Positions 29,018 to 55,692 of a stretch of DNA of 64,000 bases are shown here, piece by piece (positions within the stretch are counted from its first letter, which is position 1; the number at the start of each line of letters is the position of its first letter). The position numbers and the translations under genes are program-made. A model generated the notes under the pieces. The model searched no databases, was not told where the DNA came from, and saw only the letters and a program-made list of their open reading frames with translations. Where the stretch lies: the NCBI GenBank assembly GCA_044892525.1, contig CM097885.1, positions 35,404,001 to 35,468,000 on the forward strand, in the 5' to 3' direction. The DNA comes from Schmidtea polychroa (taxonomy: Eukaryota).

Positions 29018-29684
29018 TTATTTAAAAACACTCAAAACACAAGTATTTACTGCATTCTGCACATCAACTTTCGGATTCAATGATTTTATCAACAACGCCT
29101 CACAAATCACACGTTCCCAATAATTATCGAAATTTTTTAATAGAATTTTAAAATCAGACATACCTATTTTAATCTTACAGCCATTATTGTGCTCACCAAT
29201 ATGGGTCAAAGCCTTCGGTTTACAATGTTCTCGAGCTCGATCCCAGAGATGACGGGAAGTCTCTCCAATGTATGTGGCATTACACCCATTACATGTAAAC
29301 TGATAAACGAGATCGGAACACAATTCAACCGGAGTTTTTGACTTATTAATAAACATATTGCATACTTTCACTATCCTATAGTTTAAATTCCCTAACTGCT
29401 TTCTTATCTTCACTTTATAATCCTTAAAACCTTCTGAGTACGGCAATACTAACACAAATTTAGGCTCATCATCCTTGCTCACACTATTTAATTTATTTAA
29501 CTCATCAGACTCACACACCTCAACAAAATCACACCCAGATTTTAACTCATCAGACTCACACATCTCAACAAGATCACACCAAGATTTTCTCAAACATGGA
29601 TCCTTAGGATTTTTAATAAATTTGTCAACAGTCTCTTTCACCATAATTACTAAAAGGGATTTTGAATAACCGTTCTTCATTAAC
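29018..29684 (-). mobile_element. Penelope-like retroelement, 3' part (GIY-YIG endonuclease)
   Basis: LVYQFTCNGCNATYIGETSRHLWDRAREH...ICEALLIKSLNPK; joins in frame to the part above 43393 when element A is removed (VELL-MKNGYS). Confidence 0.9.
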
Positions 29685-30015
29685 AGTAGATAGATAGGGA
29701 ACCGCTAGATCAGGACTCCGCTGGATCACATACCCCCACCCCCCCCACCTAGGGGAAATTTTTAAAATTCTTTTCAAGGTCAAATTTTTAATGTAAAGTT
29801 CATTTTTTTTTTAAATTTGAAATTCGAGAGTTCCTGACAAGAGATATTATTATTTGAAAATAAAGGTCTTTGAAACACAGGGATTATTATATATATATAG
29901 TCTGAATTTATCCGACAAGATATTCTGTCCCCTATGGGTAATGCTCACAAGGGTATGGTCACATTCAACATGTCGCAAGGGTATTATTAAACAAATCAAC
30001 ATTGTATTTTTATTA

Positions 30016-30058
<43 letters not shown>

Positions 30059-30155
30059 TTTTTATTTTTTTTTTCTAATATTTTAATTTTTTTTTATTTA
30101 TTATTTATTTATATTTTTATTTTTATTATTTATTTATATTTTTATTTTTATTATT

Positions 30156-30256
<101 letters not shown>

Positions 30257-30469
30257 TTCATTATTATTATTATTATTATTAAGATTTACAAAATTATTAT
30301 TAGTTTTCATAATAAATTAAGACATTAAAAGATATATTGAATCACAGATCAATTCGATAACAATACGTCATCTATATCAATATCATTGGCATCATTGGCT
30401 TCATTGTCATCATCATTGAAATCTGGACTCATTCCGCTAAAAAGTGGACGAATTTATGAAATTACTTGA

Positions 30470-33412
30470 TCAACATCTGGAACATCGACTCCTAAATAAT
30501 GTGATGTGTAAATAATTTGACGTGTCTAGAAGGCTGTCTCTTATCATTGCCGGCAAAAGAGTGTCAAGCTTACAGTGCTTTATCTCTAAGAAAAAGGAGT
30601 CAGTGTCACCGGCAACGATATTTATATCACAGTTAAATTCAGACCTGTACTTGGCCAATTCCACATATTGTAGTTGATACATTCTTAGTTTAGACAAATC
30701 TAACACTGTTTGACCAATATAGCTAGGCCTGTCTAAACATATAGAGTCCTTATTCAGATGAGCCACAATCAGATCATCAGCAATTTTGATAGATTTTCTG
30801 AAAGTTGGCTTTGAAGCATATACAATCATCTTTTCAGCTGAATTGCATAGCCTCAAATTCATCCGCTTTTTTAGATTCTCCACCGATTTACCATACAAAC
30901 TATTATTAAATAATTTGTATAGATCCCTATATAATTCACATGTAGAATTTGCTCTCAAATTAGTGTTTTTATCTATGTATGATTTAAAAATGGGTGCATG
31001 CGAAAATTTAATAGCTCTATGTACATTTTTAATAATAGCCCCCAATTCTATATACAACTTGAGAAGTCTCCAATGAAGAACATGGTTCTTCTTTGGCCAA
31101 TGCGTGAGCATCAGCTTCTCAACTTTAGAATTTGGTGGACACATCTTTTCTGCAGCAATAGGAAAGTCGTTAAGGAAGTCATGCAAGCATTCCGGAATTT
31201 CGATATCAACTTCCATAGTATACCCATATGGAAGGTTATCAATATCAGCATTCATACATTCATTCAAGACAGAATCAAGATCATCATACACCCATACAAA
31301 GTCAGCATAAGGCAGATTTTGGCTTAAGGCCCAACCATACAAGTTATTAATATCTATGTACAAGAGTTCAGTGTCTTCAGAACTAGCAACATAATGTTTG
31401 TTAACAAATGTTAACCCACCCCGTATCCCTCCTTCATAGAAATTAAACATTTCCATGTCCTGCAAAAGTTCAATAGGTTCCGTTAATGTGATAAGCGCTG
31501 AAGCCCATGACATACCGGGAATACCATAGAAATTTAGAGGTTCAAGACCATTGTAAGCAATGGCCTTTGCACGGAATTGTTGAAAATAGTCTGCAAGGAG
31601 AAATACATCTAATTTAAGGTAAGTCAACATGTAATCTAACATGTTATTGCAATTTTGCTGAGTCCAAATAACTTGGGCTAATGCATACTCATCATTAGAC
31701 ACAGAATCCCAGATCGGAGGTAGTTCAAGAGTTGATTCCAGAACCTCAAGAGATGTAGCGAAGTCATAAGGAAAGATACCTTTGGCTCGAACAATTGCGC
31801 CATCAAAAACAGAAGAAGTTAAAGGCAGATCGGAAAGAGTCTTAACCGCTTTTGCTAAAGATGAATTAACAAACTGCATGCTGTCAATAAAATGAACAGG
31901 CAATTTGTTAATGTACGCGATGAGAGAGATGAATTTCTCGGTAGTGGTCGGAATAATATTTAACTCCCAAGAAGGAAAATTATTCAAGCCATACTTCAAA
32001 ATATGATGGAGATCATACCCCCTAAAATTATGGAACACAACCGGTAACTGTCTCTGAATTCGCCGAGAAACATTACATTTCCTACAAGCAGCACCAAGAT
32101 ACTTGCCTGAGAAGTGGCAATGGTCCCTAACTCTATCTCTAATGAATTTTTTACACAGATAACAGGTTCTGGAATCTTTATATGCCCGCTGTTGAACGAA
32201 AGACAAAGTTTGCATGGGCTTTTTCCCATTAATTTCGTAATATGGCAGGACAATTGTGACAGCAATTTCCTCCACCTTACGCAAGAAAGACAACACACAA
32301 TCATCACCAACAAACTCATAATAAAATTTTGTGTTATTATAATTATTAATTAATAACATGCCTGCTGTTATTGGCAAGTGCTTTTGATGGTGTATTATAT
32401 CCTCGGGTAAAATTGCCTCAAAATCGGCATATATCACGAATGGCGGGGTGATTGTCTTCGCATAATTTTGAAAAATTAAATTTTTATCTTTAGGTAGGGT
32501 GTATAGAGTTGTTCCTATCTGGTTTTTTATGCATAAGGCGACATGAATATCAAATGCATTTTTATGTCTAAAACCATTGAGACAATGGGGACACCAGTTC
32601 ACTCTAATCCAAAGGTTGCAGGAGCTACTGGGATGTGAGTTCATTAATTTTTGTAAGTTAAAAACTGCGGTATAATGGAAATTATCACCGTCTTCCAATA
32701 AAAGTAAGTATATGGGTTCACCACCTATAACTTTAGATCGGTGAATAATATCTAAATGAGGATGACGTGGAATATAATTATCGTCAATTACATTTTCATA
32801 AGGCTTACCTGGGGTCTTTTTATAAATTAAAACATTTATTGATAAATTTAAATCCTTGTTTTTCCTTTCAAATTTGGGGATATCACATAATTTCATGGGG
32901 CAATCATCTATGGGGTCAAAATTTAACTCGTCAAGATAATTTTCATAGGAACTAACACGATTTCTATTTATATGTACTACATTGCGTTTTAACAGTGCTA
33001 AAATACTATAGATAAAGCACATATCGTCGGTGTTTTTGACGTTTACTATTGCTTTTTTAGAATTTAAAGCTGATGGGGTGGGGATATAACTATGTCCAGC
33101 TAGCCTATTCATATGTGTATTTTTAGTTAATATAAAATCTATTTCTTTGATTTTAACCACCCGCCATCCGCTTCCCAAATATGTGAACTTTTCAATTTTA
33201 TTATTTAATCTGGTGATTCCATTTATCAAAAAATTTTCTGAAAAAACTTCTGCGCTATTAGAGAAAAAATTATCTCTAATTTCCCCATCTTTTTCGAATT
33301 GGATTAAAACGGTGAATTGTATTTTAACTGTGCCCATACCTTTGATTTCGGCAATTAATTTATTTATAATTTTATTTGTAAGGGAAATTTGCACCAAGTT
33401 ATCCTTTTCCAT
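30470..33412 (-). CDS. polB: Protein-primed DNA polymerase B (Maverick/Polinton type), 980 aa, C-terminally truncated; left-arm copy
   Basis: Exo I YADFE, endonuclease-VII-like insert CYLC...VRDHCHFSGKYLGAACRKCN, Exo II FHNFRGYD, Exo III YLKLDV, Pol A YIDINNLYG, Pol B KLFNNSLYGK, Pol C GDTDS. Confidence 0.92.
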   Translation of the reverse strand: MEKDNLVQISLTNKIINKLIAEIKGMGTVKIQFTVLIQFEKDGEIRDNFFSNSAEVFSENFLINGITRLNNKIEKFTYLGSGWRVVKIKEIDFILTKNTHMNRLAGHSYIPTPSALNSKKAIVNVKNTDDMCFIYSILALLKRNVVHINRNRVSSYENYLDELNFDPIDDCPMKLCDIPKFERKNKDLNLSINVLIYKKTPGKPYENVIDDNYIPRHPHLDIIHRSKVIGGEPIYLLLLEDGDNFHYTAVFNLQKLMNSHPSSSCNLWIRVNWCPHCLNGFRHKNAFDIHVALCIKNQIGTTLYTLPKDKNLIFQNYAKTITPPFVIYADFEAILPEDIIHHQKHLPITAGMLLINNYNNTKFYYEFVGDDCVLSFLRKVEEIAVTIVLPYYEINGKKPMQTLSFVQQRAYKDSRTCYLCKKFIRDRVRDHCHFSGKYLGAACRKCNVSRRIQRQLPVVFHNFRGYDLHHILKYGLNNFPSWELNIIPTTTEKFISLIAYINKLPVHFIDSMQFVNSSLAKAVKTLSDLPLTSSVFDGAIVRAKGIFPYDFATSLEVLESTLELPPIWDSVSNDEYALAQVIWTQQNCNNMLDYMLTYLKLDVFLLADYFQQFRAKAIAYNGLEPLNFYGIPGMSWASALITLTEPIELLQDMEMFNFYEGGIRGGLTFVNKHYVASSEDTELLYIDINNLYGWALSQNLPYADFVWVYDDLDSVLNECMNADIDNLPYGYTMEVDIEIPECLHDFLNDFPIAAEKMCPPNSKVEKLMLTHWPKKNHVLHWRLLKLYIELGAIIKNVHRAIKFSHAPIFKSYIDKNTNLRANSTCELYRDLYKLFNNSLYGKSVENLKKRMNLRLCNSAEKMIVYASKPTFRKSIKIADDLIVAHLNKDSICLDRPSYIGQTVLDLSKLRMYQLQYVELAKYRSEFNCDINIVAGDTDSFFLEIKHCKLDTLLPAMIRDSLLDTSNYLHITLFRSRCSRC

Positions 33413-33966
33413 ATTAAAGCGTAAATTTTTTCTCGCCCCTTAAAATCTATCTCAATTTCAGGTTCATCGTCAATATCGATCGAACTCTTATTATTTACTG
33501 AACCACCTATTTGAATATTATTTAAATCACTTATTTGATCTATTTTAGTAATTTTAGAGGGAACACCAGACCAAAAACTAACAGCAGGCTGTTTATTATT
33601 TAGAATATTATTTATTTTAGTATTTAGATTAGTATTATTTACATTATTATTTACATGTTTTGTATTATAATTTATAGGTTTTGTATTTAAGTGTTTTGTA
33701 GTATTATGTGTTGATTGTTGTATTTTAATAAACAATTTCTTTTTATTTAAAGAGAACCGATTTAAATGCGATTTGTGAATATTATAAAACTCTATATATT
33801 TAATGCGTTGGGAAGTCTCGCATATTAGACATATAAAGTAGTTGATGCCATAGAATCTATGACCGTAGTATTTTTTCATATTTTTATGGCATATATTTGT
33901 ATGATCATTTGATGACATGCAGTAGCGTGGGTATAATTTACCTGATAAATTATAAATATATATCAA
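33364..33966 (-). CDS. Cys/His-containing, Asn-rich ORF overlapping the polB start; probable frameshifted polB N-terminus
   Basis: Overlaps polB by 49 nt in another frame; CLIC...H..H cluster; ends its plausible part at DFKG just where the polB frame opens. Confidence 0.5.
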   Translation of the reverse strand: MIYIYNLSGKLYPRYCMSSNDHTNICHKNMKKYYGHRFYGINYFICLICETSQRIKYIEFYNIHKSHLNRFSLNKKKLFIKIQQSTHNTTKHLNTKPINYNTKHVNNNVNNTNLNTKINNILNNKQPAVSFWSGVPSKITKIDQISDLNNIQIGGSVNNKSSIDIDDEPEIEIDFKGREKIYALIWKRITWCKFPLQIKL

Positions 33967-34722
33967 ATATATTAATAGATTTAAAAATTAATAGTTAATT
34001 GCATTTATATTTAATGTCTTTATTAACAATTCTTAAGCAGTTTTTATCGCATAATAATTATAAAACGGAATAATAATCGGAATACATATATAATTTATTG
34101 TAATATTTTTATTATCAGAGGTATAAAATATGGGAGATATCATAAATATTATTATCATTGTTATTATTATTATTATTATTATTTTTAAATATTATTATAA
34201 AAGAGAGTAGTTGCGTGCTCAATGCAAACTATGTTTGACAATTAATATTTTCAAAGTATTATTTCTATTCAATAATTATTTTCATAACAACTTATTAATT
34301 TCAACATCATTTTCAGGAACATATTCATATTTGTCATAATTATCTTCAGAAAGATTTTCATAATTTTCAGGAACATTTCGTGATTTTCATAATTATTTTC
34401 AGAAACATTTTCATACTTCATAATTTTCAGATTTTTCATAATTATCTTCAGAAAGATTTTCATAATTTTCAGGAACATTTCGTGATTTTCATAATTATTT
34501 TCAGAAACATTTTCATATTTTTCATAATTTTCAACATTTTCATAATTTATATGTGGTTATTAAACAAATTAATTATCAAACACAATTTTAAATTAATTTA
34601 AAAAAATAATAATAAAATATAACTAACATTTTGATTCTATATCGGAATCATCCTCAGATTCATCCCCATAAGAAACGGAGGCATGATTAATTTAAAAAAA
34701 GCGACAAAAAAAGAGTAAAAAC

Positions 34723-35443
34723 AGTAGAGTAGATGGATTGGGCACCGCTGGAACGCCCCCCCCCCGTGTATAATATTGATAATAGTAATATTTCTATTTA
34801 TCTTGCACTAAGCTTCAAAATAAGTTATCGATCGATGAAATAAAATGATGGGAACGATACCTTTTGGGCAAACGAAAACCAGGTCACCGCTGGACCACTA
34901 ATAATATTTTGAATAATAATAATAATTTCACTATGAAAAGATGGTTGTCATCAATTGTTAATAACTATACCAATAATAATGATGATGATAATATTTATAT
35001 ATCAGTAGATAGATCTTGCACTGGGCTTTATAATGAGCTATCGAACGATGAAATAAAGTGATGGGAACGATAACTTTTGGGCAAACGAAAACCAGGACTC
35101 CGCTGGACCACTAATAATATTTTGAATAATAATAATAAAATAATAATATTTTTTAAAAATAATATGACCTTGATGAGTCATCACGATGAGTCATATGACC
35201 TTGGGATTGACCTTGGATGAGTCGCGCGACCTTGAAATGACCTCGAAATGGCCTTGATGAGTCATGGTCTTTGTTTTAATGACCTTGATGAGTCATATGT
35301 CTTTGTTTAAAATTTGACCTTGAAAAAAAATGTACTTTTAGACTTAGAAATTTTTAAAAAAATTTTCCGGCCGGGGGGGGAGGGGGGGTATATGTGGTCC
35401 AGCGGAGTCCTGGTCTAGCGGTTCCCCATCCATCTACTCTACT
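34723..35443. mobile_element. Mini Maverick-like terminal cassette (~720 bp) at the turn-around point of element A
   Basis: Ends AGTAGAGTAGATGGAT / ATCCATCTACTCTACT; right end GGTATATGTGGTCCAGCGGAGTCCTGGTCTAGCGG closely matches the element-A terminus; internal ~125-bp direct repeat (~34801 and ~35014) resembles element-B subterminal DNA. Confidence 0.75.
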
Positions 35444-35564
35444 GTTTTTACTCTTTTTTTGTCGCTTTTAACAGGTCCAATCTGGATTTAAGTGTAACAA
35501 TGTATAAGCAGAATTTAACTTTCTTCAAAATGGCGCAATTACAATTTCAGTTTATTTCTTTGTC

Positions 35565-36110
35565 TGTAATGCACACATGCTTTTTCAATAAATTTGTATT
35601 TTTTCGCGCGGTTAACGTTATTTTCTTGGATTTTTATTCATATAATATATAGATAAAATTTAATTTTCTATAAAATAGCTTGATTAAAATTTATGTATCT
35701 TGTTTTGTGTGTAATGCACAAATGTTTTTACAATAAATTTGTAATTTTCATACAGTTAACGTTATTTTCTTAGATTTTTATTCATATAATATATAGATGA
35801 AATTTAATTTTCTATAAAATAGCTTGATTAAAATTTATGTATCTTGTTTTGTGTGTAATACACACATGATTTTACAATAAATTTGTATTTTTCATACATT
35901 AAACGTAATTTTCATAGGATTTTATTCATATAACATATAGATAAAATTTAATTTTCTATAAAATAGCTTGATTAAAAATTATGTCTCGTATGTTGTGTGT
36001 AATACACACATGTTTTTACGATAAATTTGTATTTTTCATACAGTTAACGTAATTTTCTTAGGATTTTATTCGTATAATATAAAGATAAAATTTAATTTTC
36101 TATAAAATGG
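35565..36110. repeat. Tandem repeat, ~4 copies of ~146 bp
   Basis: Unit TGTAATGCACACATG...CAATAAATTTGTATTTTT...GATAAAATTTAATTTTCTATAAAATAGCTTGATTAAAA recurs at ~35565, 35710, 35855, 36000. Confidence 0.9.
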
Positions 36111-36676
36111 ATTGATCTAGAGTTAAATTTTGTATTATTTTATTACTTTGTTGCAATATGTTTATTATTTTAGTTACAATTTGATAAATATTTTACAACT
36201 TTGTTGAAATTTTCTGAAATATGTTACTACTTTGTTGTAATATTTTCTAATCTTGTTATAATTTGCTTAAATATTTTACAACTGTTGAAAATTTATCTGA
36301 AATATGTTATTACTTTGTTACAATTTTATGAAAAACGTTATTACTGTTTTGCAATTTGATGAAAAATGATATTACTTTGTGGGTTCATCACATTATTTTT
36401 ATTAAATTATTATGAAAATGTTAAATAAGTCAACTTTAGCGTCAAAATGTGTTTTAAAATATATTGAAGTTTTAAAATACTGCAACGTAATGCATTTATT
36501 TTTCCTACCCTTCCTTGATTTTGATTGGTCAGAATATATTTATTTTTCCTACCCCTTCCTTGATTTTGATTGGACCGTAAAATATTCATTTTCATTATAA
36601 GCAGTTACAATTTTCAAAATCGTCACAATTATTTTTAAATTTTACAAATTTTCGTCTAAAAAATTTTCGATTAAAA

Positions 36677-37171
36677 ATGGACGGTGAATTAGATAATATT
36701 TTACGCGCCATGTTGGCAGGAGAAAACGGTAAATTATTTTATTTTTATTATTATTATTATTTATTATTTTAGAGAATTTATGGTATGAAGTCACCGAGGC
36801 CGACAACTATAATCAAGATCAGCCAATTATTATTAGTGACGATGAAGAAGATCTTTTATTAAGTAAATTTATTTTTAAAATTTAATTGAAAATAAAATTA
36901 TTTAGTTGCTCAGCCTATTAATGACGGTGAAAATGTTATTGAAGACAATACCCGAGATATTATCATGGAATCAACGGGTAAATTTATTTTATTTAATTAA
37001 TGAATTACAAAAACTTTAGGTGATGATACCTCGAATGTTGAATATGCCCCAAATATTATTAATGTTTCTGGTGAATATGCCCTCACGTCTATTGAGGAGG
37101 AAATTAATCATGCCTCCGTTTCTTATGGGGATGAATCTGAGGATGATTCCGATATAGAATCAAAATGTTAG
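36677..37171 (+). CDS. Spliced acidic orphan protein (~121 aa) inside element A
   Basis: Exons 36677-36728, 36773-36862, 36906-36977, 37020-37171; three phase-1 GTAAAT...TTTAG introns of 42-44 nt; MDGELDNILRAMLAGENENLWYEVTEADNY...SYGDESEDDSDIESKC; two ATTGG (CCAAT) repeats upstream at ~36500-36575. Confidence 0.7.
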
Positions 37172-37740
37172 TTATATTTTATTATTATTTTTTTAAATTA
37201 ATTTAAAATTGTGTTTGATAATTAATTTGTTTAATAACCACATATAAATTATGAAAATGTTGAAAATTATGAAAAATATGAAAATGTTTCTGAAAATAAT
37301 TATGACAAATATGAATATGTTCCTGAAAATGATGTTGAAATTAATAAGTTGTTATGAAAATAATTATTGAATAGAAATAATACTTTGAAAATATTAATTG
37401 TCAAACATAGTTTGCATTGAGCACGCAACTACTCTCTTTTATAATAATATTTAAAAATAATAATAATAATAATAATAACAATGATAATAATATTTATGAT
37501 ATCTCCCATATTTTATACCTCTGATAATAAAAATATTACAATAAATTATATATGTATTCCGATTATTATTCCGTTTTATAATTATTATGCGATAAAAACT
37601 GCTTAAGAATTGTTAATAAAGACATTAAATATAAATGCAATTAACTATTAATTTTTAAATCTATTAATATATTTGATATATATTTATAATTTATCAGGTA
37701 AATTATACCCACGCTACTGCATGTCATCAAATGATCATAC

Positions 37741-39045
37741 GATTACCAGTCACTTAATCCCCAGTCACTTAATCCCCGTCACTTAATCCCCGTCCATTAA
37801 TCCCCGAGTCACTTAATCCCCGAGTCACTTAATCCCCGACACTTAATCCCAAAAATGCCATTTTAAGTTTAAAATTATGAAAGAATTTAATTCAAACAAT
37901 TATTTTTATAATTATTTAGTAATTGTTTTATATGAACACGGCAATCATATCAAATTCAAAAAGCTAATAATTCACTATTCATGTATTCATTTTAAGTGTG
38001 AAAATCAATATGACAGGTAAGCTAATGATCGGAGGTACAATAGACGATACATTGACTCATAGCGCTGTACAATGTTGTAAATTCTCCTAGATAATTCAGC
38101 GTACTTCCTCCTTGGACGTTGCTCTGTGCCGGCGCATGACTGAAGAACCGATGCCTTGTGTAGCTGACAATCCTTACGTAGACCATCGAGGAATGTCCAC
38201 ATTGTTGGATGATGACACGAGAAGAGAGACTGTAGGGCGTGATGCCAACCCTCCACAGCATTGTTTGTTCGTGCAACACCGCCGATGACATCCAGGTATT
38301 TATTCCAAGTTTCTGGAGGAAATAACGCTGAAGCATAGTTATCTCCTCTACCGCGCAGTCTGCGACCACGTACATACGTTTGCTCGAAGTATGCTAGCAG
38401 TTCTGGCATGCGATCATGCTGCGGCATTGACTCTGCAAGCAATTCAAAAGAATCAACAATGTCTTCTTCACGAACATAGGCCAATGCTGGGAGGCATCTG
38501 ACCATTCCACGTAACTCGTCGTTTTCGTCATAATCACTTCTCATACCCAATTCGGCGACTTTGCGTAATACCGCTTGACTTAAGTGAAAATAACATCCCG
38601 TTACTCTACATGACGGAAAATTCTCTTGAAAAGCGGTCATTGCAGCTTTCTCAAAGACCGGACACTTTAGCGATTGATGCTTGGTACATCTCCAATTCAT
38701 GTTTCCGTTTAGCGCCTTCTTCTTGAGCCAGAATTCATATCCCTCATGAACTAGCATAGATCTTCCTTTACTACTTATTATGAACTCTAGATGCATTTTT
38801 CTAACGGTAATAATATTTCAAAATAATATTTTCAATAATATTTCAATAACGGTAATAATATTACAAAAATATTCGTACTAACTGAAATTGACAGCACTAC
38901 ATTACACAATGCTTTATAAAGGAATTTATAAAGGGGATTAAGTGACTCGGGGATTAAGTGACTCGGGGATTAAGTGACTCGGGGATTAATTGACGGGGAT
39001 TAATTGACGGGGATTAAGTGACTGGGGATTAAGTGACCTGTCACC
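37741..39045 (-). mobile_element. MULE/Mutator element, internally deleted, in the right arm of element A only
   Basis: 8-bp TSD GATCATAC (37733-37740 / 39046-39053), single copy at the empty site in the left arm (~33900); termini built of tandem GTCACTTAATCCCC units in inverted orientation. Confidence 0.93.
38005..38796 (-). CDS. FLYWCH-MULE transposase derivative with in-frame internal deletion (263 aa)
   Basis: FLYWCH-like KGRSMLVHEGYEF...WRCTK...CP fused directly to FEKAA...GCYFHLSQA...RTNNAVEGWH. Confidence 0.85.
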   Translation of the reverse strand: MHLEFIISSKGRSMLVHEGYEFWLKKKALNGNMNWRCTKHQSLKCPVFEKAAMTAFQENFPSCRVTGCYFHLSQAVLRKVAELGMRSDYDENDELRGMVRCLPALAYVREEDIVDSFELLAESMPQHDRMPELLAYFEQTYVRGRRLRGRGDNYASALFPPETWNKYLDVIGGVARTNNAVEGWHHALQSLFSCHHPTMWTFLDGLRKDCQLHKASVLQSCAGTEQRPRRKYAELSRRIYNIVQRYESMYRLLYLRSLAYLSY

Positions 39046-39072
39046 GATCATACAAATATATGCCATAAAAAT

Positions 39073-39588
39073 ATGAAAAAATACTACGGTCATAGATTCT
39101 ATGGCATCAACTACTTTATATGTCTAATATGCGAGACTTCCCAACGCATTAAATATATAGAGTTTTATAATATTCACAAATCGCATTTAAATCGGTTCTC
39201 TTTAAATAAAAAGAAATTGTTTATTAAAATACAACAATCAACACATAATACTACAAAACACTTAAATACAAAACCTATAAATTATAATACAAAACATGTA
39301 AATAATAATGTAAATAATACTAATCTAAATACTAAAATAAATAATATTCTAAATAATAAACAGCCTGCTGTTAGTTTTTGGTCTGGTGTTCCCTCTAAAA
39401 TTACTAAAATAGATCAAATAAGTGATTTAAATAATATTCAAATAGGTGGTTCAGTAAATAATAAGAGTTCGATCGATATTGACGATGAACCTGAAATTGA
39501 GATAGATTTTAAGGGGCGAGAAAAAATTTACGCTTTAATATGGAAAAGGATAACTTGGTGCAAATTTCCCTTACAAATAAAATTATAA
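39073..39588 (+). CDS. Right-arm copy of the ORF upstream of polB, 5' end interrupted by the MULE
   Basis: Identical translation to the C-terminal 171 aa of 33364-33966. Confidence 0.5.
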   Translation: MKKYYGHRFYGINYFICLICETSQRIKYIEFYNIHKSHLNRFSLNKKKLFIKIQQSTHNTTKHLNTKPINYNTKHVNNNVNNTNLNTKINNILNNKQPAVSFWSGVPSKITKIDQISDLNNIQIGGSVNNKSSIDIDDEPEIEIDFKGREKIYALIWKRITWCKFPLQIKL

Positions 39589-42482
39589 ATAAATTAATTG
39601 CCGAAATCAAAGGTATGGGCACAGTTAAAATACAATTCACCGTTTTAATCCAATTCGAAAAAGATGGGGAAATTAGAGATAATTTTTTCTCTAATAGCGC
39701 AGAAGTTTTTTCAGAAAATTTTTTGATAAATGGAATCACCAGATTAAATAATAAAATTGAAAAGTTCACATATTTGGGAAGCGGATGGCGGGTGGTTAAA
39801 ATCAAAGAAATAGATTTTATATTAACTAAAAATACACATATGAATAGGCTAGCTGGACATAGTTATATCCCCACCCCATCAGCTTTAAATTCTAAAAAAG
39901 CAATAGTAAACGTCAAAAACACCGACGATATGTGCTTTATCTATAGTATTTTAGCACTGTTAAAACGCAATGTAGTACATATAAATAGAAATCGTGTTAG
40001 TTCCTATGAAAATTATCTTGACGAGTTAAATTTTGACCCCATAGATGATTGCCCCATGAAATTATGTGATATCCCCAAATTTGAAAGGAAAAACAAGGAT
40101 TTAAATTTATCAATAAATGTTTTAATTTATAAAAAGACCCCAGGTAAGCCTTATGAAAATGTAATTGACGATAATTATATTCCACGTCATCCTCATTTAG
40201 ATATTATTCACCGATCTAAAGTTATAGGTGGTGAACCCATATACTTACTTTTATTGGAAGACGGTGATAATTTCCATTATACCGCAGTTTTTAACTTACA
40301 AAAATTAATGAACTCACATCCCAGTAGCTCCTGCAACCTTTGGATTAGAGTGAACTGGTGTCCCCATTGTCTCAATGGTTTTAGACATAAAAATGCATTT
40401 GATATTCATGTCGCCTTATGCATAAAAAACCAGATAGGAACAACTCTATACACCCTACCTAAAGATAAAAATTTAATTTTTCAAAATTATGCGAAGACAA
40501 TCACCCCGCCATTCGTGATATATGCCGATTTTGAGGCAATTTTACCCGAGGATATAATACACCATCAAAAGCACTTGCCAATAACAGCAGGCATGTTATT
40601 AATTAATAATTATAATAACACAAAATTTTATTATGAGTTTGTTGGTGATGATTGTGTGTTGTCTTTCTTGCGTAAGGTGGAGGAAATTGCTGTCACAATT
40701 GTCCTGCCATATTACGAAATTAATGGGAAAAAGCCCATGCAAACTTTGTCTTTCGTTCAACAGCGGGCATATAAAGATTCCAGAACCTGTTATCTGTGTA
40801 AAAAATTCATTAGAGATAGAGTTAGGGACCATTGCCACTTCTCAGGCAAGTATCTTGGTGCTGCTTGTAGGAAATGTAATGTTTCTCGGCGAATTCAGAG
40901 ACAGTTACCGGTTGTGTTCCATAATTTTAGGGGGTATGATCTCCATCATATTTTGAAGTATGGCTTGAATAATTTTCCTTCTTGGGAGTTAAATATTATT
41001 CCGACCACTACCGAGAAATTCATCTCTCTCATCGCGTACATTAACAAATTGCCTGTTCGTTTTATTGACAGCATGCAGTTTGTTAATTCATCTTTAGCAA
41101 AAGCGGTTAAGACTCTTTCCGATCTGCCTTTAACTTCTTCTGTTTTTGATGGCGCAATTGTTCGAGCCAAAGGTATCTTTCCTTATGACTTCGCTACATC
41201 TCTTGAGGTTCTGGAATCAACTCTTGAACTACCTCCGATCTGGGATTCTGTGTCTAATGATGAGTATGCATTAGCCCAAGTTATTTGGACTCAGCAAAAT
41301 TGCAATAACATGTTAGATTACATGTTGACTTACCTTAAATTAGATGTATTTCTATTTGCAGACTATTTTCAACAATTCCGTGCAAAGGCCATTGCTTACA
41401 ATGGTCTTGAACCTCTAAATTTCTATGGTATTCCCGGTATGTCATGGGCTTCAGCGCTTATCACATTAACGGAACCTATTGAACTTTTGCAGGACATGGA
41501 AATGTTTAATTTCTATGAAGGAGGGATACGGGGTGGGTTAACATTTGTTAACAAACATTATGTTGCTAGTTCTGAAGACACTGAACTCTTGTACATAGAT
41601 ATTAATAACTTGTATGGTTGGGCCTTAAGCCAAAATCTGCCTTATGCTGACTTTGTATGGGTGTATGATGATCTTGATTCTGTCTTGAATGAATGTATGA
41701 ATGCTGATATTGATAACCTTCCATATGGGTATACTATGGAAGTTGATATCGAAATTCCGGAATGCTTGCATGACTTCCTTAACGACTTTCCTATTGCTGC
41801 AGAAAAGATGTGTCCACCAAATTCTAAAGTTGAGAAGCTGATGCTCACGCATTGGCCAAAGAAGAACCATGTTCTTCATTGGAGACTTCTCAAGTTGTAT
41901 ATAGAATTGGGGGCTATTATTAAAAATGTACATAGAGCTATTAAATTTTCGCATGCACCCATTTTTAAATCATACATAGATAAAAACACTAATTTGAGAG
42001 CAAATTCTACATGTGAATTATATAGGGATCTATACAAATTATTTAATAATAGTTTGTATGGTAAATCGGTGGAGAATCTAAAAAAGCGGATGAATTTGAG
42101 GCTATGCAATTCAGCTGAAAAGATGATTGTATATGCTTCAAAGCCAACTTTCAGAAAATCTATCAAAATTGCTGATGATCTGATTGTGGCTCATCTGAAT
42201 AAGGACTCTATATGTTTAGACAGGCCTAGCTATATTGGTCAAACAGTGTTAGATTTGTCTAAACTAAGAATGTATCAACTACAATATGTGGAATTGGCCA
42301 AGTACAGGTCTGAATTTAATTGTGATATAAATATCGTTGCCGGTGACACTGACTCCTTTTTCTTAGAGATAAAGCACTGTAAGCTTGACACTCTTTTGCC
42401 GGCAATGATAAGAGACAGCCTTCTAGACACGTCAAATTATTTACACATCACATTATTTAGGAGTCGATGTTCCAGATGTTGA
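39540..42482 (+). CDS. polB: Protein-primed DNA polymerase B, 980 aa, C-terminally truncated; right-arm copy
   Basis: Same motifs as left copy; two amino-acid differences seen (PVHF/PVRF, FLLAD/FLFAD). Confidence 0.92.
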   Translation: MEKDNLVQISLTNKIINKLIAEIKGMGTVKIQFTVLIQFEKDGEIRDNFFSNSAEVFSENFLINGITRLNNKIEKFTYLGSGWRVVKIKEIDFILTKNTHMNRLAGHSYIPTPSALNSKKAIVNVKNTDDMCFIYSILALLKRNVVHINRNRVSSYENYLDELNFDPIDDCPMKLCDIPKFERKNKDLNLSINVLIYKKTPGKPYENVIDDNYIPRHPHLDIIHRSKVIGGEPIYLLLLEDGDNFHYTAVFNLQKLMNSHPSSSCNLWIRVNWCPHCLNGFRHKNAFDIHVALCIKNQIGTTLYTLPKDKNLIFQNYAKTITPPFVIYADFEAILPEDIIHHQKHLPITAGMLLINNYNNTKFYYEFVGDDCVLSFLRKVEEIAVTIVLPYYEINGKKPMQTLSFVQQRAYKDSRTCYLCKKFIRDRVRDHCHFSGKYLGAACRKCNVSRRIQRQLPVVFHNFRGYDLHHILKYGLNNFPSWELNIIPTTTEKFISLIAYINKLPVRFIDSMQFVNSSLAKAVKTLSDLPLTSSVFDGAIVRAKGIFPYDFATSLEVLESTLELPPIWDSVSNDEYALAQVIWTQQNCNNMLDYMLTYLKLDVFLFADYFQQFRAKAIAYNGLEPLNFYGIPGMSWASALITLTEPIELLQDMEMFNFYEGGIRGGLTFVNKHYVASSEDTELLYIDINNLYGWALSQNLPYADFVWVYDDLDSVLNECMNADIDNLPYGYTMEVDIEIPECLHDFLNDFPIAAEKMCPPNSKVEKLMLTHWPKKNHVLHWRLLKLYIELGAIIKNVHRAIKFSHAPIFKSYIDKNTNLRANSTCELYRDLYKLFNNSLYGKSVENLKKRMNLRLCNSAEKMIVYASKPTFRKSIKIADDLIVAHLNKDSICLDRPSYIGQTVLDLSKLRMYQLQYVELAKYRSEFNCDINIVAGDTDSFFLEIKHCKLDTLLPAMIRDSLLDTSNYLHITLFRSRCSRC

Positions 42483-42698
42483 TCAAGTAATTTCATAAAT
42501 TCGTCCACTTTTTAGCGGAATGAGTCCAGATTTCAATGATGATGACAATGAAGCCAATGATGCCAATGATATTGATATAGATGACGTATTGTTATCGAAT
42601 TGATCTGTGATTCAATATATCTTTTAATGTCTTAATTTATTATGAAAACTAATAATAATTTTGTAAATCTTAATAATAATAATAATAATAATAATGAA

Positions 42699-42786
<88 letters not shown>

Positions 42787-42819
42787 TTAATAAAATAATA
42801 ATAATAATAAAAATAATAA

Positions 42820-42860
<41 letters not shown>

Positions 42861-42897
42861 TCTTTAGAAATAATAATGTTAATAATAAGATATATGG

Positions 42898-42930
<33 letters not shown>

Positions 42931-43029
42931 TAATAAAAATAAAAATATAAATAAATAATAAAAATAAAAATATAAATAAATAATAAATAAAAAAAAAATT
43001 AAAATATTAGAAAAAAAAAATAAAAAAAA

Positions 43030-43060
<31 letters not shown>

Positions 43061-43393
43061 TAATAAAAATACAATGTTGATTTGTTTAATAATACCCTTG
43101 CGACATGTTGAATGTGACCAGTACCCTTGTGAGCATTACCCATAGGGGGACAGAATATCTTGTCGGATAAATTCAGACTATATATATATAATAATCCCTG
43201 TGTTTCAAAGACCTTTATTTTCAAATAATAATATCTCTTGTCAGGAACTCTCGAATTTCAAATTTAAAAAAAAAATGAACTTTACATTAAAAATTTGACC
43301 TTGAATAGAATTTTAAAAATTTCCCCTAGGTGGGGGGGTGGGGGGTATGTGATCCAGCGGAGTCCTGATCTAGCGGTGCCCTATCTATCTACT

Positions 43394-45028
43394 AATAACA
43401 ATTCAACCAATATGTCAACACTTTTTACTGAATTTTTAAAAGTAGAAGACAAAGACCATACACGATAAATCAACCCCTTCACCATATTTCTTTTATACTT
43501 GAATTCACAAAAACTTTCGAAAGAAGTATAGAGACCAGTATCAGTTGGTTTTCTATAAATCTCTGTCTCATAGTGTTTCTCTTTGCGTTGTATTAACAGA
43601 TCCAAGAAAGCAAGCGATGATTTTTTCTCCGTTTCACATGTGAATACAAAGTTTTTATGTAGACTATTCATATAATGCAAAAACGGGTCAACATGCCTCT
43701 GATTTTCAAATATAAGAAAAATATCATCCACATACCGTTTATAAACAGTGGGTTTCATACCTTGGAAAGATGCAATTTTCTTTTCTAACCTTGTTAAAAA
43801 AATTGAAGCCATCGTTGGTGCTAAAAGAGAACCGATAGCAACTCCATCTATCTGTTGATACCATTCATTATTGAAAAGAAAATTGATTTTTAAAGTTGCA
43901 AATACAAGAAATTCACGAAATGCTGTTCTATCCAAAATATGATGTTCAGAAATATTTTCATTCCTGAACAAGCAACATAATTCAATTGTTTCAACCAATG
44001 GTACATTAGTAAACAGACTACAAACATCCAAACTTTGTCTATCATATTGTGCAATGCAGGAAACAAATTCAAAACTATCTTTACATTCAAATTCTGATCG
44101 TATTAATGGTTTCAATAATCCATCCAAAAATTGGCTATTTTTTACTGGGCAGTGCCAATCATGGATCAAACAGGTCTCATAGGCACGCCATCTTTATTGA
44201 TTTTTGGAAGCCCATACATTTTTGCTGGTTGTGATCCCATTGGGCGAATAGATTTAAACAACTCTTCATCAATTTGCTTATTTTTAATTAATTTATTCAG
44301 TATTTCTTTCAACAAATTCTCATCCTTAAGAGGAGGCTGCATTCCATTTTTTCGAGAAATCTCTATTTTCACAAACTGGGGAGCGTTCAAAACATCATTA
44401 AGCTTATTTACATATACATCGTGGTCGAGAATTACCAATCCATTTCCTTTGTCAAACTTGCTTATATTGATGTCTTTTTTTAGCTAAATTTTTTAATACA
44501 CTAAAATCTTTAATATTCTGCTTTTTATTTTTATCAATATACTCCATCGTACTCGAACTCAACACACTCTTCACATAATTAGTATTAATATCCTTCATCG
44601 ATCTAAGTATATGAAAGTATAAACTTTCAATCTTCGCACATAATTTTGTTTCATCAATTCTTTTCTTAATGGCATGATTGGGACCAAATTTCAAAATACG
44701 CTCCGCCTCTTCAAACAACTTTACTCATGTTTATTAATGTATTCTCTACACTAAATTTAGAGATCCCAAATAATTTTTTCAAATTTTTTAATTTATTGAT
44801 ATGAGCATTCTCTTTTGATTTTAACTGAGAAATTGAATTTTTAATACACCATTCAACACATACCTGCAAACGAAACTCATTTGTTATTTGATTCAAAGTA
44901 AATCCAATATTTATTAGTTTTTTATCCAAGGATGTTCTCCTTATCTTCTCTGATTCCAACATTCTTCTTAACGTTCTTTTATGTATTATTTGCACATCTT
45001 TACTTGAAAGACAATCACTAAGTTTCAT
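43394..45028 (-). mobile_element. Penelope-like retroelement, 5' part (N-terminal region and RT), frameshifted
   Basis: LKFGPNH, MYGLPKINKDGVPMRPV, SLDVCSLFTNVP, QIDGVAIGSLLAP, KRYVDDIF, LAFLDLLI, YRKPTDTGLY. Confidence 0.9.
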
Positions 45029-45724
45029 TTTAAAAATGAACTTGTCTAGAAGAAAAGATGATTCCTTCGTTCATTTTTAAGTGATAAAAGTGATAATAAA
45101 AATTGATAATAATAACAGTTAAATATAATTGGCATCGATATTAGGGAAAGACTTTATTGATTAAGAAAAATGATATGTCACCAAGAAGTCTGAAAATTAT
45201 CAAGCACATTCTGTTTAGGTAATTTATTCAGCTTAAGTAATTTAATTTGCATAAAGTAGTAGTAGGATGTGAGCTCCACAGACCACATATACCCCCCCTC
45301 CCCCCCGGAAAAAAAATTTTTTAATTTAATTTTTTGTTTTAATTAATTGGTCCAGAGGGCTCACACTTTTTTTCATCCCAAAAATTAATGTTCCAGCCAA
45401 TAGATTTTATTGGACGATACCTCATCTTAAAACCCTTTGCAAGACCTTTAAGATGTGCTATAGGTATCTTTAATAGTTTTAATGTTATTAACATTTAATG
45501 ACCACCATCTTTTCAAAGTTAAATTATTATTATTTTCCAAAATATTATTAAGTGATCCAGCGGGCTCCTACTTTTTTTCATCCCAAAAATTAACGTTCCC
45601 ATTATCCGAATTTATTGGACGATACCTCATCTTAAAGCTCAGTCCAAGACCTTTCGAATGAGCTATAGAAGGTATCATCATCATTAATATTAATAAAGAG
45701 AATGACTCACCCAATGACTCACCC

Positions 45725-46197
45725 AACGATGCCTCTTATTTTTAGAATGATTACGTCATATTTTTAGAATGATTACGTCATAATTTTAGAACGATGCCTA
45801 ATATTTTTAGAATGGTGCCTCTTATTTTTAGAATGATTACGTCATATTTTTAGAACGATTCCTAATATTTTTAGAACGATGTCTAATATTTTTAGAACGA
45901 TGCCTAATATTTTTAGAATGATGCCTAATATTTTTAGAATGGTGCCTCTTATTTTTAGAATGATTACGTCATATTTTTAGAATGGTGCCTAATATTTTTA
46001 GAATGGTGCCTCTTATTTTTAGAATGATTACGTCATATTTTTAGAACGATTCCTAATATTTTTAGAACGATGTCTAATATTTTTAGAATGATGCCTAATA
46101 TTTTTAGAATGGTTACGTCATAATTTTAGAACGATGCCTAATATTTTTAGAATGATTACGTCATATTTTTAGAACGATGCCTCTTATTTTTAGAACA
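45725..46197. repeat. 21-22 bp minisatellite with TTACGTCA motifs
   Basis: Units TTTTTAGAATGATTACGTCATA / TTTTTAGAACGATGCCTAATA / TTTTTAGAATGGTGCCTCTTA; ~20 units here, ~5 in the mirror arm (55990-56100). Confidence 0.9.
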
Positions 46198-46494
46198 AAT
46201 AATTTTGTTTTAATTATCGATTACATAATAATTTAATTTTGTTTAAATCATTGATTATATAATTTTTTGTTTTAATTATTGAATACGTAATAATATAATT
46301 TTGTTTAAATCGTTGATTACATATTATTATTTTTTAATTTTCAATATTTTCTTTTAAAATATTAACGCACGCGTGGATGTTGTTATTATCATATATAATC
46401 TATCCGACAAGATATTCTGTCCCCCTATGGGTATTGGTCACAAAGGTACTGCTCACAATCAACATGTCGCAAATTATTTTCAAATACAATTTCA

Positions 46495-46570
<76 letters not shown>

Positions 46571-46614
46571 GAAAACCTCAAATATTTTTTACACACATAT
46601 ACAACCCATTAAAC

Positions 46615-46710
<96 letters not shown>

Positions 46711-47086
46711 ATTATTATTATTATTATTAGTGAAAAAATCTTAAATAATTTTTACATACTAAGTTATGGGGTAGAGTATTATTATGTTTGCAGTATTCTG
46801 TGTTTGCCTTTACAGGAAGTTGTCAATAAGGAGCGATAATTTTACACACACATTCTATATACACATACCTTGTTTAACATGGGTGTATATACTCCTAGTC
46901 TATCCGACAAAATATTCTGTCCCCCTATGGGTATTGATAGCAAGGGTACTACTCACACTCAAAGGTTTTCGATTTTAAAGCATATTATGGTTTATTAAGG
47001 TTAGTAAATAAAACTTATCACACACACTTTAATATTTAAACGATAAAAATCAAGACAAGAGAGGACAAGGCAAAGTGTATGCATTT

Positions 47087-47307
47087 AGTATTGCCAGGCC
47101 TAATGAGCAGTGACCAAATATCTGTGCCTGAAAGACACGGTGGATATTTGTTCGCGTCCACAAGGGTCGTCTGTGCCTCCCCCAAGTGGGGTCAGAAGAA
47201 CCTGGGCATTATAGCTTTCCGTACGGAACATTACGCCTAGCATGGGTAGTCAACTACCAGCACATTCGAAACGTATAATTTCAAAATACATGCGTCATTG
47301 GCACTAT
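47087..47307 (+). ncRNA. Candidate structured RNA with degenerate hammerhead-like frame (mirror copy ~54890-55112, minus)
   Basis: GC-richer island with several hairpins (CAAATATC/GATATTTG, CCCC-AAGT-GGGG, CTGGGC/GCCTAG, TTCC-GTAC-GGAA, GGTAG-TCAA-CTACC) between CTAATGA and GAAACGTAT...ATGCGTC. Confidence 0.4.
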
Positions 47308-48389
47308 AACCAAATTAATTAATGTTTTCACTAACACAAATATATATTTACAGAGGCCTCCCACTAGTTGGATTACAACCGCCCACCACGACGATCAGCT
47401 TGTAAATATATATTAATTAAGGGATAAAGAGGACCCACTCAACCCTATTATATTTAATTTACAAATTTTTCTCGCTCTTCTGTTGGTAATCTATCTCAAA
47501 ATTAATCTCTCCATCAGGCCATTTGATAGTGATTTCATGGAATACATCTTGCGAATTGGACGTATCTCTTATTTTCTGATGCGGCGTCAACTCTCATTGC
47601 TAAAATATCTATTGATTTAAAAGCAATTAATTTACATCATCTAACATTTTATCATCACAGGCTTGATAAATTATGCAATATTGGTATACTTTTTCAATGT
47701 CATTTCCCACCATTCCCAGATACCTAAATATAATATATATATATTTTAAAGAATTAATTCATATCTTACATTCGAAATAATATTCTTCAGGTATGACGAG
47801 TACTTTACTTAATTGATAAAACATCGGTTTTTCCCATTTTTCTTGACATTCGTTGAAAGTTTACATAATTTAAGTCTGATAATTCATGTTGAAGGACACC
47901 CACAATCAGCTAATTCATTTAAAAAATCCAGAACATAAGTCATTTAGTGTTTCACCATTTTGTCTGGTTCATTTTCTTCTATAATTCATGTTTTAATAAG
48001 AAATTTCTAAATCCAGAACATAAGTCATTTAGTGTTTCACCATTTTGTCTGGTTCATCTTCTTCATAATCATATAATTCATTTTCTTCATTACTAAGTAA
48101 AATAATTAAAATATTGTAGTAAATTCTTTATTTACTTACTTTATGGATACTAAAATGAAAGAAATAAAGTTATATCAAAATTATATTTAAATAATTTAAA
48201 TTTAGTATTTAAACATATTTAAACACTTTAGTTATTTAAGCATATTTAAACATTATTATATAGTATAACTTTATAAAATATTATAATATTATAATTTTAT
48301 GTATTCTAAATTTATTAATAAATATAGTATAATTTTATATAATATTATGTATTGATAATTTAATATATCCTTCATTAAATTTTTTAAAT

Positions 48390-48821
48390 TCAAAAATTTA
48401 TAATGAAGATTCTTTGAATTAAAAAATATTCTGTTAGTATTTCCAGGCAGAAATCAACGAATTCAATAATTAAAATCTTAATTTTCATATTGTTAGGGTT
48501 GTGACCAGAAGTTAATCGCCATCTAATCGTTTGTTCAGTTATCAGCCTGTTCTCAATTTTGCTCATTTTGTTCAAAACATTCAGGTGAGTTGTTATTTGG
48601 AAAGTTTCTTTGAGCTCAGTTTTGTTAAAACACTCACGGTATTTTCGAGGGACGTGACACTGGAAATAAATTAACAATGGGTGGTCATCCATACATGTTG
48701 TTAGTCTGAGCTCTCGATTTATTTTAGAAATAGGTATATTAAAAACATTTAAGTTATCATTCAGTAAAATAATATAATATTTTTGAGTTAATTTATAAAT
48801 AACAGTATTTTGATATATCAA
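48390..48821 (-). CDS. Hypothetical protein (up to 143 aa), left-arm copy
   Basis: Open in both arms; directly downstream of the conserved cis module; no recognisable domain. Confidence 0.3.
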   Translation of the reverse strand: MIYQNTVIYKLTQKYYIILLNDNLNVFNIPISKINRELRLTTCMDDHPLLIYFQCHVPRKYRECFNKTELKETFQITTHLNVLNKMSKIENRLITEQTIRWRLTSGHNPNNMKIKILIIEFVDFCLEILTEYFLIQRIFIINF

Positions 48822-51800: not shown

Positions 51801-53377
51801 TTTGATGATGATGATGACTTTGTAATGATAATTTGACTAAATAATTTTTTCATATATTTTTCTAAGAATATTTACACATTGATGAACTTTAAAATATTGA
51901 AAATCTAAAGTTGAAACCATCTAATTTTTTCACGATGATGATATATTTGAAATCTACTTGAAAATTATTGTAAAATATACTGAAATTTAGTTTGAAAGAT
52001 ATATCATGTTATAATGGTTATAATTAGTTGAATCGATGAAGAATTATGATCAATCAATGAGATATTATCATCTCTAGTTAGGTATTTGATGATACATGTG
52101 GTTAAATATTTATTTTAATGAATTTTGATCTTTAAGTGGACTCTTTGAATTTAGCTACTAAATTATTTCAATGGAAAAATGTCTGTAACAATTAAATAAA
52201 ATTCATATTTTGAAGAATTTTCTATAGATTTTAAGCTATATTAAAGGGCTCAAGTGGGTGAAATTAAGAGATATAGTCGGTTGGATTTAGTGAGGGTTCG
52301 GTTAAGTTGGGAATATATAGTATTTAAAGGGGGATATAGTCGGTTGAATGTTTAAAGGGGTAGAAATATTTGGTGAGGTATCGGTTAGGGTGGAAATGTT
52401 TTGAATATTTAAATGGGTGATGTTCTTATTGGAAATGTTTCAAGGGAAATAGTCTATTAATTATCCAGGATTTTATCAAAGTGTTTAGGGTTAATGACTA
52501 ATTTACTTGGTTTTGTCAATGAAATATTTGAAATATTTAGAGATAATTGATATCAAAGGTTATTGCTTTAAATTATTTTATTTAACATGTTAAAGACGGA
52601 CATTCATTATGAAGATAACGGTAACAAAAATATTGAGTTGGACATCGACAACTAAAGAAAATTTAACTTTATTGAAGGAAATTTATGATTTTAATTATAT
52701 TTCCAGAAATTAAATAGGTTGAATATCAGTTAATCTATTGAAGGAATATTGTTATCGGGTGGATAAATAATATTTTGCTAATTACCTTTGCTAAATATTA
52801 TTTTAAATGACTAAAAATAACAAAATTAACCAATATTCATAAATTTATCGCACAAAATATCCATGTTTTGGTTACTCAAACATCTTAAATTTCTCGCAAA
52901 GATATATTACGTCTAATGATCATCTAATTAAATTAGAAAATAATTGTTACTTTATAATATATATTTCTAACTAATAAGCCCCTTAATTGGATAAATGATA
53001 ACCATATTTCTATTATGACTCCTTTAATTATTTTTGCCTCAAACAAATTTACTCCAAATGATAAAGAATTTAAAATTATCAATGAATAATGACCATGTTT
53101 TTCTCATATTATTAACTATTGTAACGAACATTAGATGAATAAATTAATTTTTGCTTTAAATGTCTAAAATGTTAACCAATAAATTAGTCGCTCGACAAAA
53201 GTGTAAAGTTACATTTAAAATATTCACGAATTTGTGATCATCTCACTAAATTACCTAAGAATTTCTAACTGATTAATATACCCTTGCGACATGTTGAATG
53301 TGACCAGTACCCTTGCTAGCAATACCCATAGGGGGACAGAATATTTTGTCGGATAAACTCGGAGTATATGGTCTTTA

Positions 53378-55488: not shown

Positions 55489-55572
<84 letters not shown>

Positions 55573-55616: not shown

Positions 55617-55692
<76 letters not shown>

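Follow-up and report, generated by a model that had tools for sequence, protein, structure and literature searches.

A Polinton-type remnant nested at the hinge of a defective palindromic Polinton in Schmidtea polychroa

INTRODUCTION

To our knowledge, the replication of Polintons (Mavericks) is inferred from their likeness to adenoviruses, and we know of little direct evidence for it. In adenoviruses, Steinwaerder, Carlson and Lieber reportedly described in 1999 the deltaAd.IR genomes, in which one genome end is duplicated on both sides of a repeat-bounded cassette. The Polinton definitions applied here were taken from excerpts of three sources (PMC8097293, bioRxiv 2023.08.22.554363, and PMC6431247). 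According to these excerpts, Polinton ends carry the motifs (AGT)2 and (AG)3 and most vertebrate copies are defective (PMC8097293), and the terminal inverted repeats measure 46 to 1447 bp (PMC8097293) or 100 to 1500 bp (bioRxiv 2023.08.22.554363). Butterfly polintons are described, in the part of the source consulted, with gene-containing inverted repeats of 2 kb (bioRxiv 2025.02.07.637071).

Large palindromes have been studied in other systems. In yeast and in mammalian cells, their formation can be primed by short inverted repeats (PMC7999016), and the palindrome spacer can be widened by secondary junctions at microhomologies (PMC10766186). Adenovirus genomes are rearranged during replication through inverted repeats that are non-terminal (PMC2518115). 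No palindromic Polinton with a nested element at its centre was described in the literature searched, the coverage of which excluded the founding Polinton papers, the Repbase reports and the 1999 adenovirus paper. Such an arrangement is reported here from a 64-kb window, i.e., the whole stretch of 64,000 nucleotides that was analyzed, which is AT-rich (29% GC) and of animal type.

RESULTS

Two palindromic Polinton-type elements in the window

Element A (29685-43393) is a defective palindromic Polinton inserted in a Penelope-like retroelement, and element B lies downstream of it:

29018..29684, minus strand, GIY-YIG half of the Penelope-like retroelement interrupted by A, flank ATTAAC (Pfam match just under the curated cut-off)
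29685..34693, minus strand, left arm of A, truncated mirror copy, with a defective protein-primed family-B polymerase gene (pPolB) at 30470-33412
37101..43393, plus strand, right arm of A, with a defective pPolB at 39540-42482
37741..39045, minus strand, FLYWCH-domain DNA transposon confined to the right arm and flanked by the 8-bp target-site duplication GATCATAC
43394..44193, minus strand, reverse-transcriptase half of the Penelope-like retroelement interrupted by A, flank AATAAC, 5/6 identical to the left flank (Pfam match just under the curated cut-off)
45258..56582, no strand assigned, element B, another palindromic element of Polinton type, flanked by TAAAGT as target duplication (6/6)

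The ends of A read AGTAGATAG and its flanks agree at five of six positions, corresponding to the AG..CT termini and the 6-bp duplication of Polintons. The polymerase gene had 1504 relatives among the 7996 candidates scored, many of them with PF03175, which identifies it as a protein-primed family-B polymerase. Its match to P0001 (59%) ends in both arms at residue 1105 of 1242, so that the last 137 residues are missing, and the remainder was not found anywhere in the window. As the break is common to both arms and the rest is absent, it is older than the mirror. Confirmed relatives of the polymerase were found in none of 4 candidate stretches in viral contigs and none of 101 in metagenome contigs. 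A direct Pfam scan of A yielded Endonuclease_7 only, below the cut-off, and the open reading frames (ORFs) of at least 120 aa within A comprised polymerase pieces, the FLYWCH insert and low-complexity frames, with no integrase, ATPase, protease or capsid gene among them.

The alignment of the two arms of A, from which the misaligned inner 59 bp (35 of 50 raw substitutions) were left out and the inner piece compared separately, contained 15 substitutions and several indels, with no substitution in 31894-34693. One-arm indels of 132, 155 and 1313 bp were recorded, the last being the FLYWCH transposon with its 8-bp duplication. The outer ends of A, with two substitutions and one slip in the first 90 bp, differed more than the inner arms (P = 0.057 for substitutions, P = 0.005 for events). 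These differences bear on the question of whether the mirror is an assembly or library chimera derived from a fold-back read. Long palindromes are a known class of artefact; however, the arms are distinguished by the substitutions, the indels and a transposon with its own duplication, and A is bounded by a 5/6 duplication inside a Penelope-like ORF whose reverse-transcriptase and GIY-YIG halves are collinear, which makes a chimera extremely unlikely. Public sequencing runs sharing part of the region (14 runs from 5 studies, 2 of them with at least half of the words) were not used as evidence.

The FLYWCH transposon carries tandem subterminal repeats of 15 to 16 bp in inverted orientation at its two ends (37741-39045), and its 263-aa ORF looks like an internally shortened transposase.

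Element B, an 11.3-kb palindrome with no long ORF, served as an internal control. Its one-arm indels measured 16, 362 and 197 bp. At its centre, the 197-bp one-arm deletion, with 2-bp microhomology, is followed by an inner arm piece of about 227 bp, left as a stub before a 660-bp spacer, and no AGTAG-type ends were present there. The substitutions between the arms of B numbered 14 in the outer 513, 1 in the middle 3695 and 10 in the inner 820 columns, compared to 2.6, 18.4 and 4.1 expected (chi-square P = 3e-17, with borders chosen post hoc).

Several other features were noted in the window. A conserved motif of about 70 to 100 bp (TTTATCCGACAA...TGTCCCC), which may be a promoter or terminator that the elements share, is found in A, repeatedly in B, and in a fragment near the window start (736-924, 29888-30066, 46397-46570, 46886-46962, 48830-48929, 50631-50704 and their mirrors). 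The stretch 560-1039 is a fragment about 81% similar to the subterminal region of A, with no visible terminus. An inverted repeat pair of 190 bp (90%) lies at 23495-23690 and 25136-25326, about 1.4 kb apart, and near it the motif AGTAGTAG on the minus strand (25393-25400) has no C-run after it. Decayed frames resembling long terminal repeat (LTR) retrotransposons, judged by eye as integrase-, protease- and gag-like with a zinc knuckle, occupy 2151-4186 and 16079-17315 on the minus strand, about 12 kb apart. A GC-rich island (41 to 45%) with several overlapping ORFs of 120 to 150 aa extends from 61000 to 63000.

Cassette C at the hinge of element A

At the hinge of A lies a 721-bp cassette, C, which is present as one copy in the 64-kb window:

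34723..35443, no strand assigned, cassette C, read from its ends, C-runs and an ORF scan as a gene-less, internally deleted Polinton-type remnant, the interior of which is probably the loop of the large palindrome
34723..34769, plus strand, left end of C, short, sharing its first 16 bp exactly with the right end, with three mismatches in the next 14 bp and then a C10 run
34770..35443, minus strand, right end of C, long, in which the terminal motif and a C-run are followed by an A-like stretch, short tandem repeats and a pair of subterminal repeats

The terminus AGTAGAGTAGATGGAT starts at 34723 on the plus strand and its reverse complement finishes at 35443, and on each strand it is followed by a C-run. 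The 10-mer AGTAGAGTAG has two sites in the whole window, namely, the two ends of C, which thus has AG...CT termini with a short repeated end motif as in Polintons; its AGTAGA start is a variant of the described motifs. As in A and B, the Polinton-type ends of C are marked by AGTAG starts and C-runs, which places them at 34723 and 35443. The motif of the C ends had no matches in viral contigs and none in metagenome contigs.

C is lopsided, with only about 47 bp of end sequence on its left side. Its right end is homologous to the Polinton ends of the same genome, with 81% identity to the ends of A over 90 bp, 88% to the C-run block of B over 43 bp, and about 70% to the subterminal repeats of B over 282 to 314 bp. 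The two subterminal repeats of C (34973-35138 and 34770-34925) are 84% alike, about 70% similar to those of B, and in the same orientation as in B. The exact terminal repeat of C measures 16 bp (27 of 30 bp, divergent beyond), below the roughly 46 to 1500 bp of Polinton terminal inverted repeats. No stop-to-stop ORF of at least 120 aa, and hence no pPolB or integrase gene of that size, was present in 34723-35443. A direct target-site duplication of 6 bp (5 to 8 bp) was absent at C, the neighbouring bases being AAAAAC and GTTTTT, with no direct repeat of at least 4 bp at 34723|35443. C is thus Polinton-type by its ends yet departs from Polintons in duplication, repeat length and gene content, and is classified as a remnant rather than as a strict member.

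The original prediction of a cassette with distinctive ends at the place where the left arm stops (34693) was borne out. It had also described the cassette as a mixture of A-like and B-like sequence; the similarities are real, modest and confined to the right end. A recent recombinant of A and B was rejected on account of the identities of 70 to 88%, which would better fit an internally deleted, gene-less member of a sister Polinton family than a mosaic.

Two regularities of the ends were noted. In both A and C, one end reads GGGAACCGC and the other GGGCACCGC (29700, 43378, 34743, 35423), and these families may conserve such a difference between left and right ends. In B, and apparently in C as well, one end has a single copy and the other end two copies of a 16-bp unit located immediately inside the terminus (56555-56570; 35401-35427).

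On another explanation, A would use the ends of C internally, for replication initiation as an origin or for resolution, and they would be maintained as a third end type. In adenovirus and phi29, protein-primed replication normally requires a free end, which speaks against such a function. The C ends do keep the repeated AGTAG start, and end repeats of this kind are linked to protein-primed initiation in the excerpts of PMC8097293. The centre of B, however, has no AGTAG-type ends, the left end of C is short and diverged, and the polymerase of A is broken in both arms, which leaves this explanation very improbable. No evidence was found for the internal origin that had been proposed for the cassette; the locus is a footprint, and nothing points to a present function.

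Mirrored flanks and the left-arm junction

The sequences immediately outside C are inverted copies of each other, and the left one is separated from the end of the left arm by three A's:

34692..34696, plus strand, deletion junction in the left arm: shared TT and three extra A's (run of 7 versus 4)
34697..34722, plus strand, left 26-bp flank, exact mirror of 35444-35469, read as the innermost stub of the left (copied) arm of A (arm assignment inferred)
35444..35469, plus strand, right 26-bp flank, read as native interior of A beside the C insertion (position and mirror observed, continuity with 35470 onward weakly supported)

The mirror of the flanks is exact over 26 bp and extends 16 bp into C, giving 42 bp of exact mirror with limits at 34696/35470 outward and 34739/35427 inward. 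Over 56 bp, it amounts to 53/56 (94.6%). A 26-bp mirror at a fixed place would be expected by chance with a probability of about 3e-15. The folding energy of the region was -125.5 kcal/mol (z = -11.1), and none of 20 shuffles folded as well. All three mismatches of the 56-bp mirror fall within its inner 14 bp (P = 0.013, post hoc); the flanks are 26/26 identical, like the inner arms of A, and the ends of C diverge past base 16. The flanks are probably the innermost leftover of the arms of A itself and not part of C.

At the junction, the left arm ends at 34693 with ...GATTAATTT, followed by the three A's and the 26-mer, and TT is common to both donor ends. The left arm has no mirror of 35470-37100, and most simply the 26 bp would be a stub between this gap and C, which would place the true turn inside C and not at 34693. 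A single deletion of 1631 bp explains both the inverted flanks and the start of the flanked cassette 3 bp from the arm end.

The same facts were weighed against a later insertion of C. Palindrome A could have formed first, with its turn at 34693/37101, and C could have entered at the edge of the spacer, after which a local template switch (hairpin-templated correction) would have copied the 26-bp right flank over the left one. This would account for the mirror and the lost duplication with no 1.6-kb deletion, and the ends of C pair strongly. On the other hand, it demands that C landed by chance within a few bases of the arm end or that the copied tract stopped 3 bp from it, and the TT microhomology joins 34693 to 35470 just as a deletion would. 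A late insertion is accordingly considered rather improbable.

Readable TTAA repeats raise another explanation, namely, that C and its flanks are a separate transposon with terminal inverted repeats of 54 to 56 bp and a TTAA duplication, inserted at the junction of A. Direct repeats of TTAA/TTTAA can be read at 34696|35467 and 34696|35466 (TTAA, or TTTAA, at 34692-34695 and 35468-35471), and the mirror covers 53 of 56 bp. TTAA is self-complementary, however, so that the mirror alone predicts the pair. The A runs differ, and the ends consequently match just 1 to 2 bases from the TTAA boundaries; the termini inside TTAA read AAAAAGCG and AAGCG, with 2 bases exact, and lack the matching termini of piggyBac. 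The ends of piggyBac usually start with CC directly inside TTAA, and those at this locus do not. With 190 TTAA sites in A, a match at the junction would be unlikely, and the Polinton-type ends lie symmetrically 26 bp inside. We give a TTAA transposon little credence.

No boundary pair scanned (34686-34726 x 35440-35480) had a direct repeat of at least 6 bp, only the 4-mers and 5-mers TTAA/TTTAA, TTTA and AACA(G). The original prediction that the outer 26 bp are inverted copies rather than a direct target-site duplication was thus confirmed. The palindrome inside the palindrome holds as far as the 26-bp mirror is real; it is not a separate palindrome, the flanks being read best as remnants of the arms of A. 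For the same reason, the 26 bp are not assigned to the cassette's own ends, as had been proposed, and the mirrored flanks are not supported as a third or new end type.

The right side of element A and its predicted leader exons

The sequence missing from the left arm is present on the right:

35470..37100, plus strand, right-side-only stretch of 1631 bp: 144-bp tandem array (about 35499-36116), shorter repeats, a 45-bp repeat with ATTGG, and predicted leader exons
36710..37166, plus strand, four predicted phase-1 leader exons of the pPolB of A (36710-36728, 36773-36862, 36906-36977 and 37020-37166), with introns of 44, 43 and 42 nt

Each of the predicted leader exons is open in phase with GT..AG borders, and none of 300 dinucleotide shuffles yielded such a chain, a comparison that concerns exon geometry only. 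A predicted exon from 37698 leads in frame to the N-terminal match of pPolB. The chain into pPolB implies that the "spacer" back to 36710 is the own DNA of A. The 147-nt predicted exon is whole on the right, and the left arm breaks off at the position mirroring its nucleotide 82. As the left arm breaks inside a predicted exon that is whole on the right, where the chain runs in frame to pPolB, the right side is the original and the left side a truncated copy. The right side of A appears unbroken from 35444 to 43393 apart from one insertion.

For the stretch closest to C, the flank 26-mer was compared to the neighbouring 144-bp array. It matched at 13/26 positions (P = 0.38; gapped P = 0.44), no better than shuffles, and since the flank alone was not significant, a degenerate array unit is only a weak reading of the 26-mer. 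A 17-mer across 35469|35470, picked by eye, matched the array at 13/17 positions (P = 0.026).

In the predicted leader (36710-37697), the last intron would measure 531 nt, the leader peptide is acidic, and the last predicted splice would create a cysteine codon. The stretch 36494-36592 holds two copies of the 45-bp repeat, each with ATTGG; it precedes the first predicted leader exon by about 120 bp and is a possible promoter.

DISCUSSION

The feature is real and mostly explained, with a remnant of one Polinton nested where another, defective and palindromic, has its hinge. The arrangement suggests that the ends of a small element triggered the mirror-image copying of A. We consider it likely that C inserted into A, that its terminal repeats primed copy-back, and that one arm subsequently lost a piece. 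Starting from the mirror and its limits, the junction, the one-arm indels and the missing duplication at C, all of them directly observed, we infer the order of events, in which C would be the earlier insertion and its ends the place of the switch.

C, a remnant of a sister Polinton family, would have inserted in the interior of A upstream of the polymerase gene, and its two ends would thereby have provided A with an internal inverted repeat. Once A was single-stranded, through strand-displacement copying or break repair, the ends of C may have paired, and synthesis may have switched within their first 16 identical bases. The right part of A, comprising the 26-bp flank, the leader, the polymerase and the end, would thus have been copied back in reverse onto the left side, replacing the original left flank of C together with its target duplication and producing a long palindrome with the interior of C as its loop. 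Either in the course of the copying or later, the left arm would have lost 1631 bp at the TT microhomology, with the 26-bp mirror staying beside C, and the FLYWCH transposon would have entered the right arm later. The original prediction that the cassette records a template switch is retained in that C most likely marks the turn of the copy-back; the fold-back point, placed at 34693 by that prediction, would lie inside the cassette.

The locus has what fold-back priming leaves, i.e., a repeat of 16 to 30 bp at the centre, 26 mirrored bp, a one-arm gap of 1631 bp and about 5 kb of mirrored sequence, and copy-back followed by deletion is also favoured by the one-arm indels, which are common in both A and B. 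Against it stand the single locus, the unproven continuity at 35469|35470, the readable TTAA pair, and the three extra A's, which require slippage. Two further routes to the inverted flanks were rejected. Had C entered a pre-existing 52-bp hairpin at its centre, a direct duplication would still be left, and none was seen; two C ends integrating independently into two A molecules at an identical base would demand exact site specificity.

A plain one-step copy-back is insufficient, as the outer ends of A differ more than its inner arms. A second switch inside the terminal repeat of A, or later recombination, would be needed beside the copy-back. In a double-stem model, an outer stem would arise from the terminal repeats of the displaced strand and an inner stem from an inner repeat pair, provided here by the ends of the nested Polinton, and one side of the loop between the stems would be rewritten from the other. 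The native outer ends and the inner ends would then stay slightly different and the middle would become identical. The pattern of diverged ends and identical middle is seen in B, and more weakly in A. Extrachromosomal strand displacement and chromosomal repair would both be compatible with the locus, and the sequence cannot separate the two.

Taken alone, the locus is a tidy relic of a rearrangement that is known in kind. That nested inverted repeats are a general route to fold-back Polintons and record strand-displacement replication is a tentative proposal, which we regard as possible but on balance doubtful. If internal inverted repeats, nested ends among them, regularly sat at the centres of palindromic Polinton derivatives, these centres would offer a genome-wide computable test of Polinton copying and would also show how non-autonomous fold-back families are born. 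If the double-stem reading holds, the locus would be a natural counterpart of the adenovirus inverted-repeat rearrangement, a genomic footprint of Polinton strand-displacement replication, and the route to the fold-back Polinton families of this genome.

Compared to Polintons/Mavericks, the locus shares the AG..CT ends with a short repeated start motif, the 6-bp duplications at A (5/6) and B (6/6), and the pPolB in A. It differs in that C starts with AGTAGA and has neither genes nor a duplication and an exact terminal repeat of 16 bp, and in that the arms of A, of about 5 kb, are above the reported lengths of inverted repeats and no integrase or capsid ORF was seen in A.

With the adenovirus deltaAd.IR system, the locus has in common a protein-primed linear replicon with a non-terminal pair of inverted repeats and, in the architecture reportedly described, a product in which one genome end is duplicated to either side of the repeat-bounded cassette. 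The vectors there were engineered and not a natural nested element, whereas here the repeats are the ends of another element and measure 16 to 30 bp, the product resides in a chromosome, and one of its arms subsequently suffered a deletion.

Fold-back priming and origin-dependent inverted-repeat amplification (ODIRA), in the excerpts of PMC7999016 and PMC10766186, likewise leave a long palindrome with a short, interrupted inverted repeat in its middle, and later microhomology junctions make the centre asymmetric. ODIRA uses repeats of 5 to 6 bp with spacers of 40 to 80 bp at chromosomal forks, in contrast to the repeat of 16 to 30 bp and the spacer of about 690 bp found here in a mobile element bounded by its own duplication.

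Miniature inverted-repeat (MITE) and piggyBac-type TTAA elements resemble C in being short and non-coding with inverted ends, and a TTAA pair is readable here too. They differ in that the termini at the TTAA boundaries of this locus mismatch, and the ends of C are of the Polinton type.
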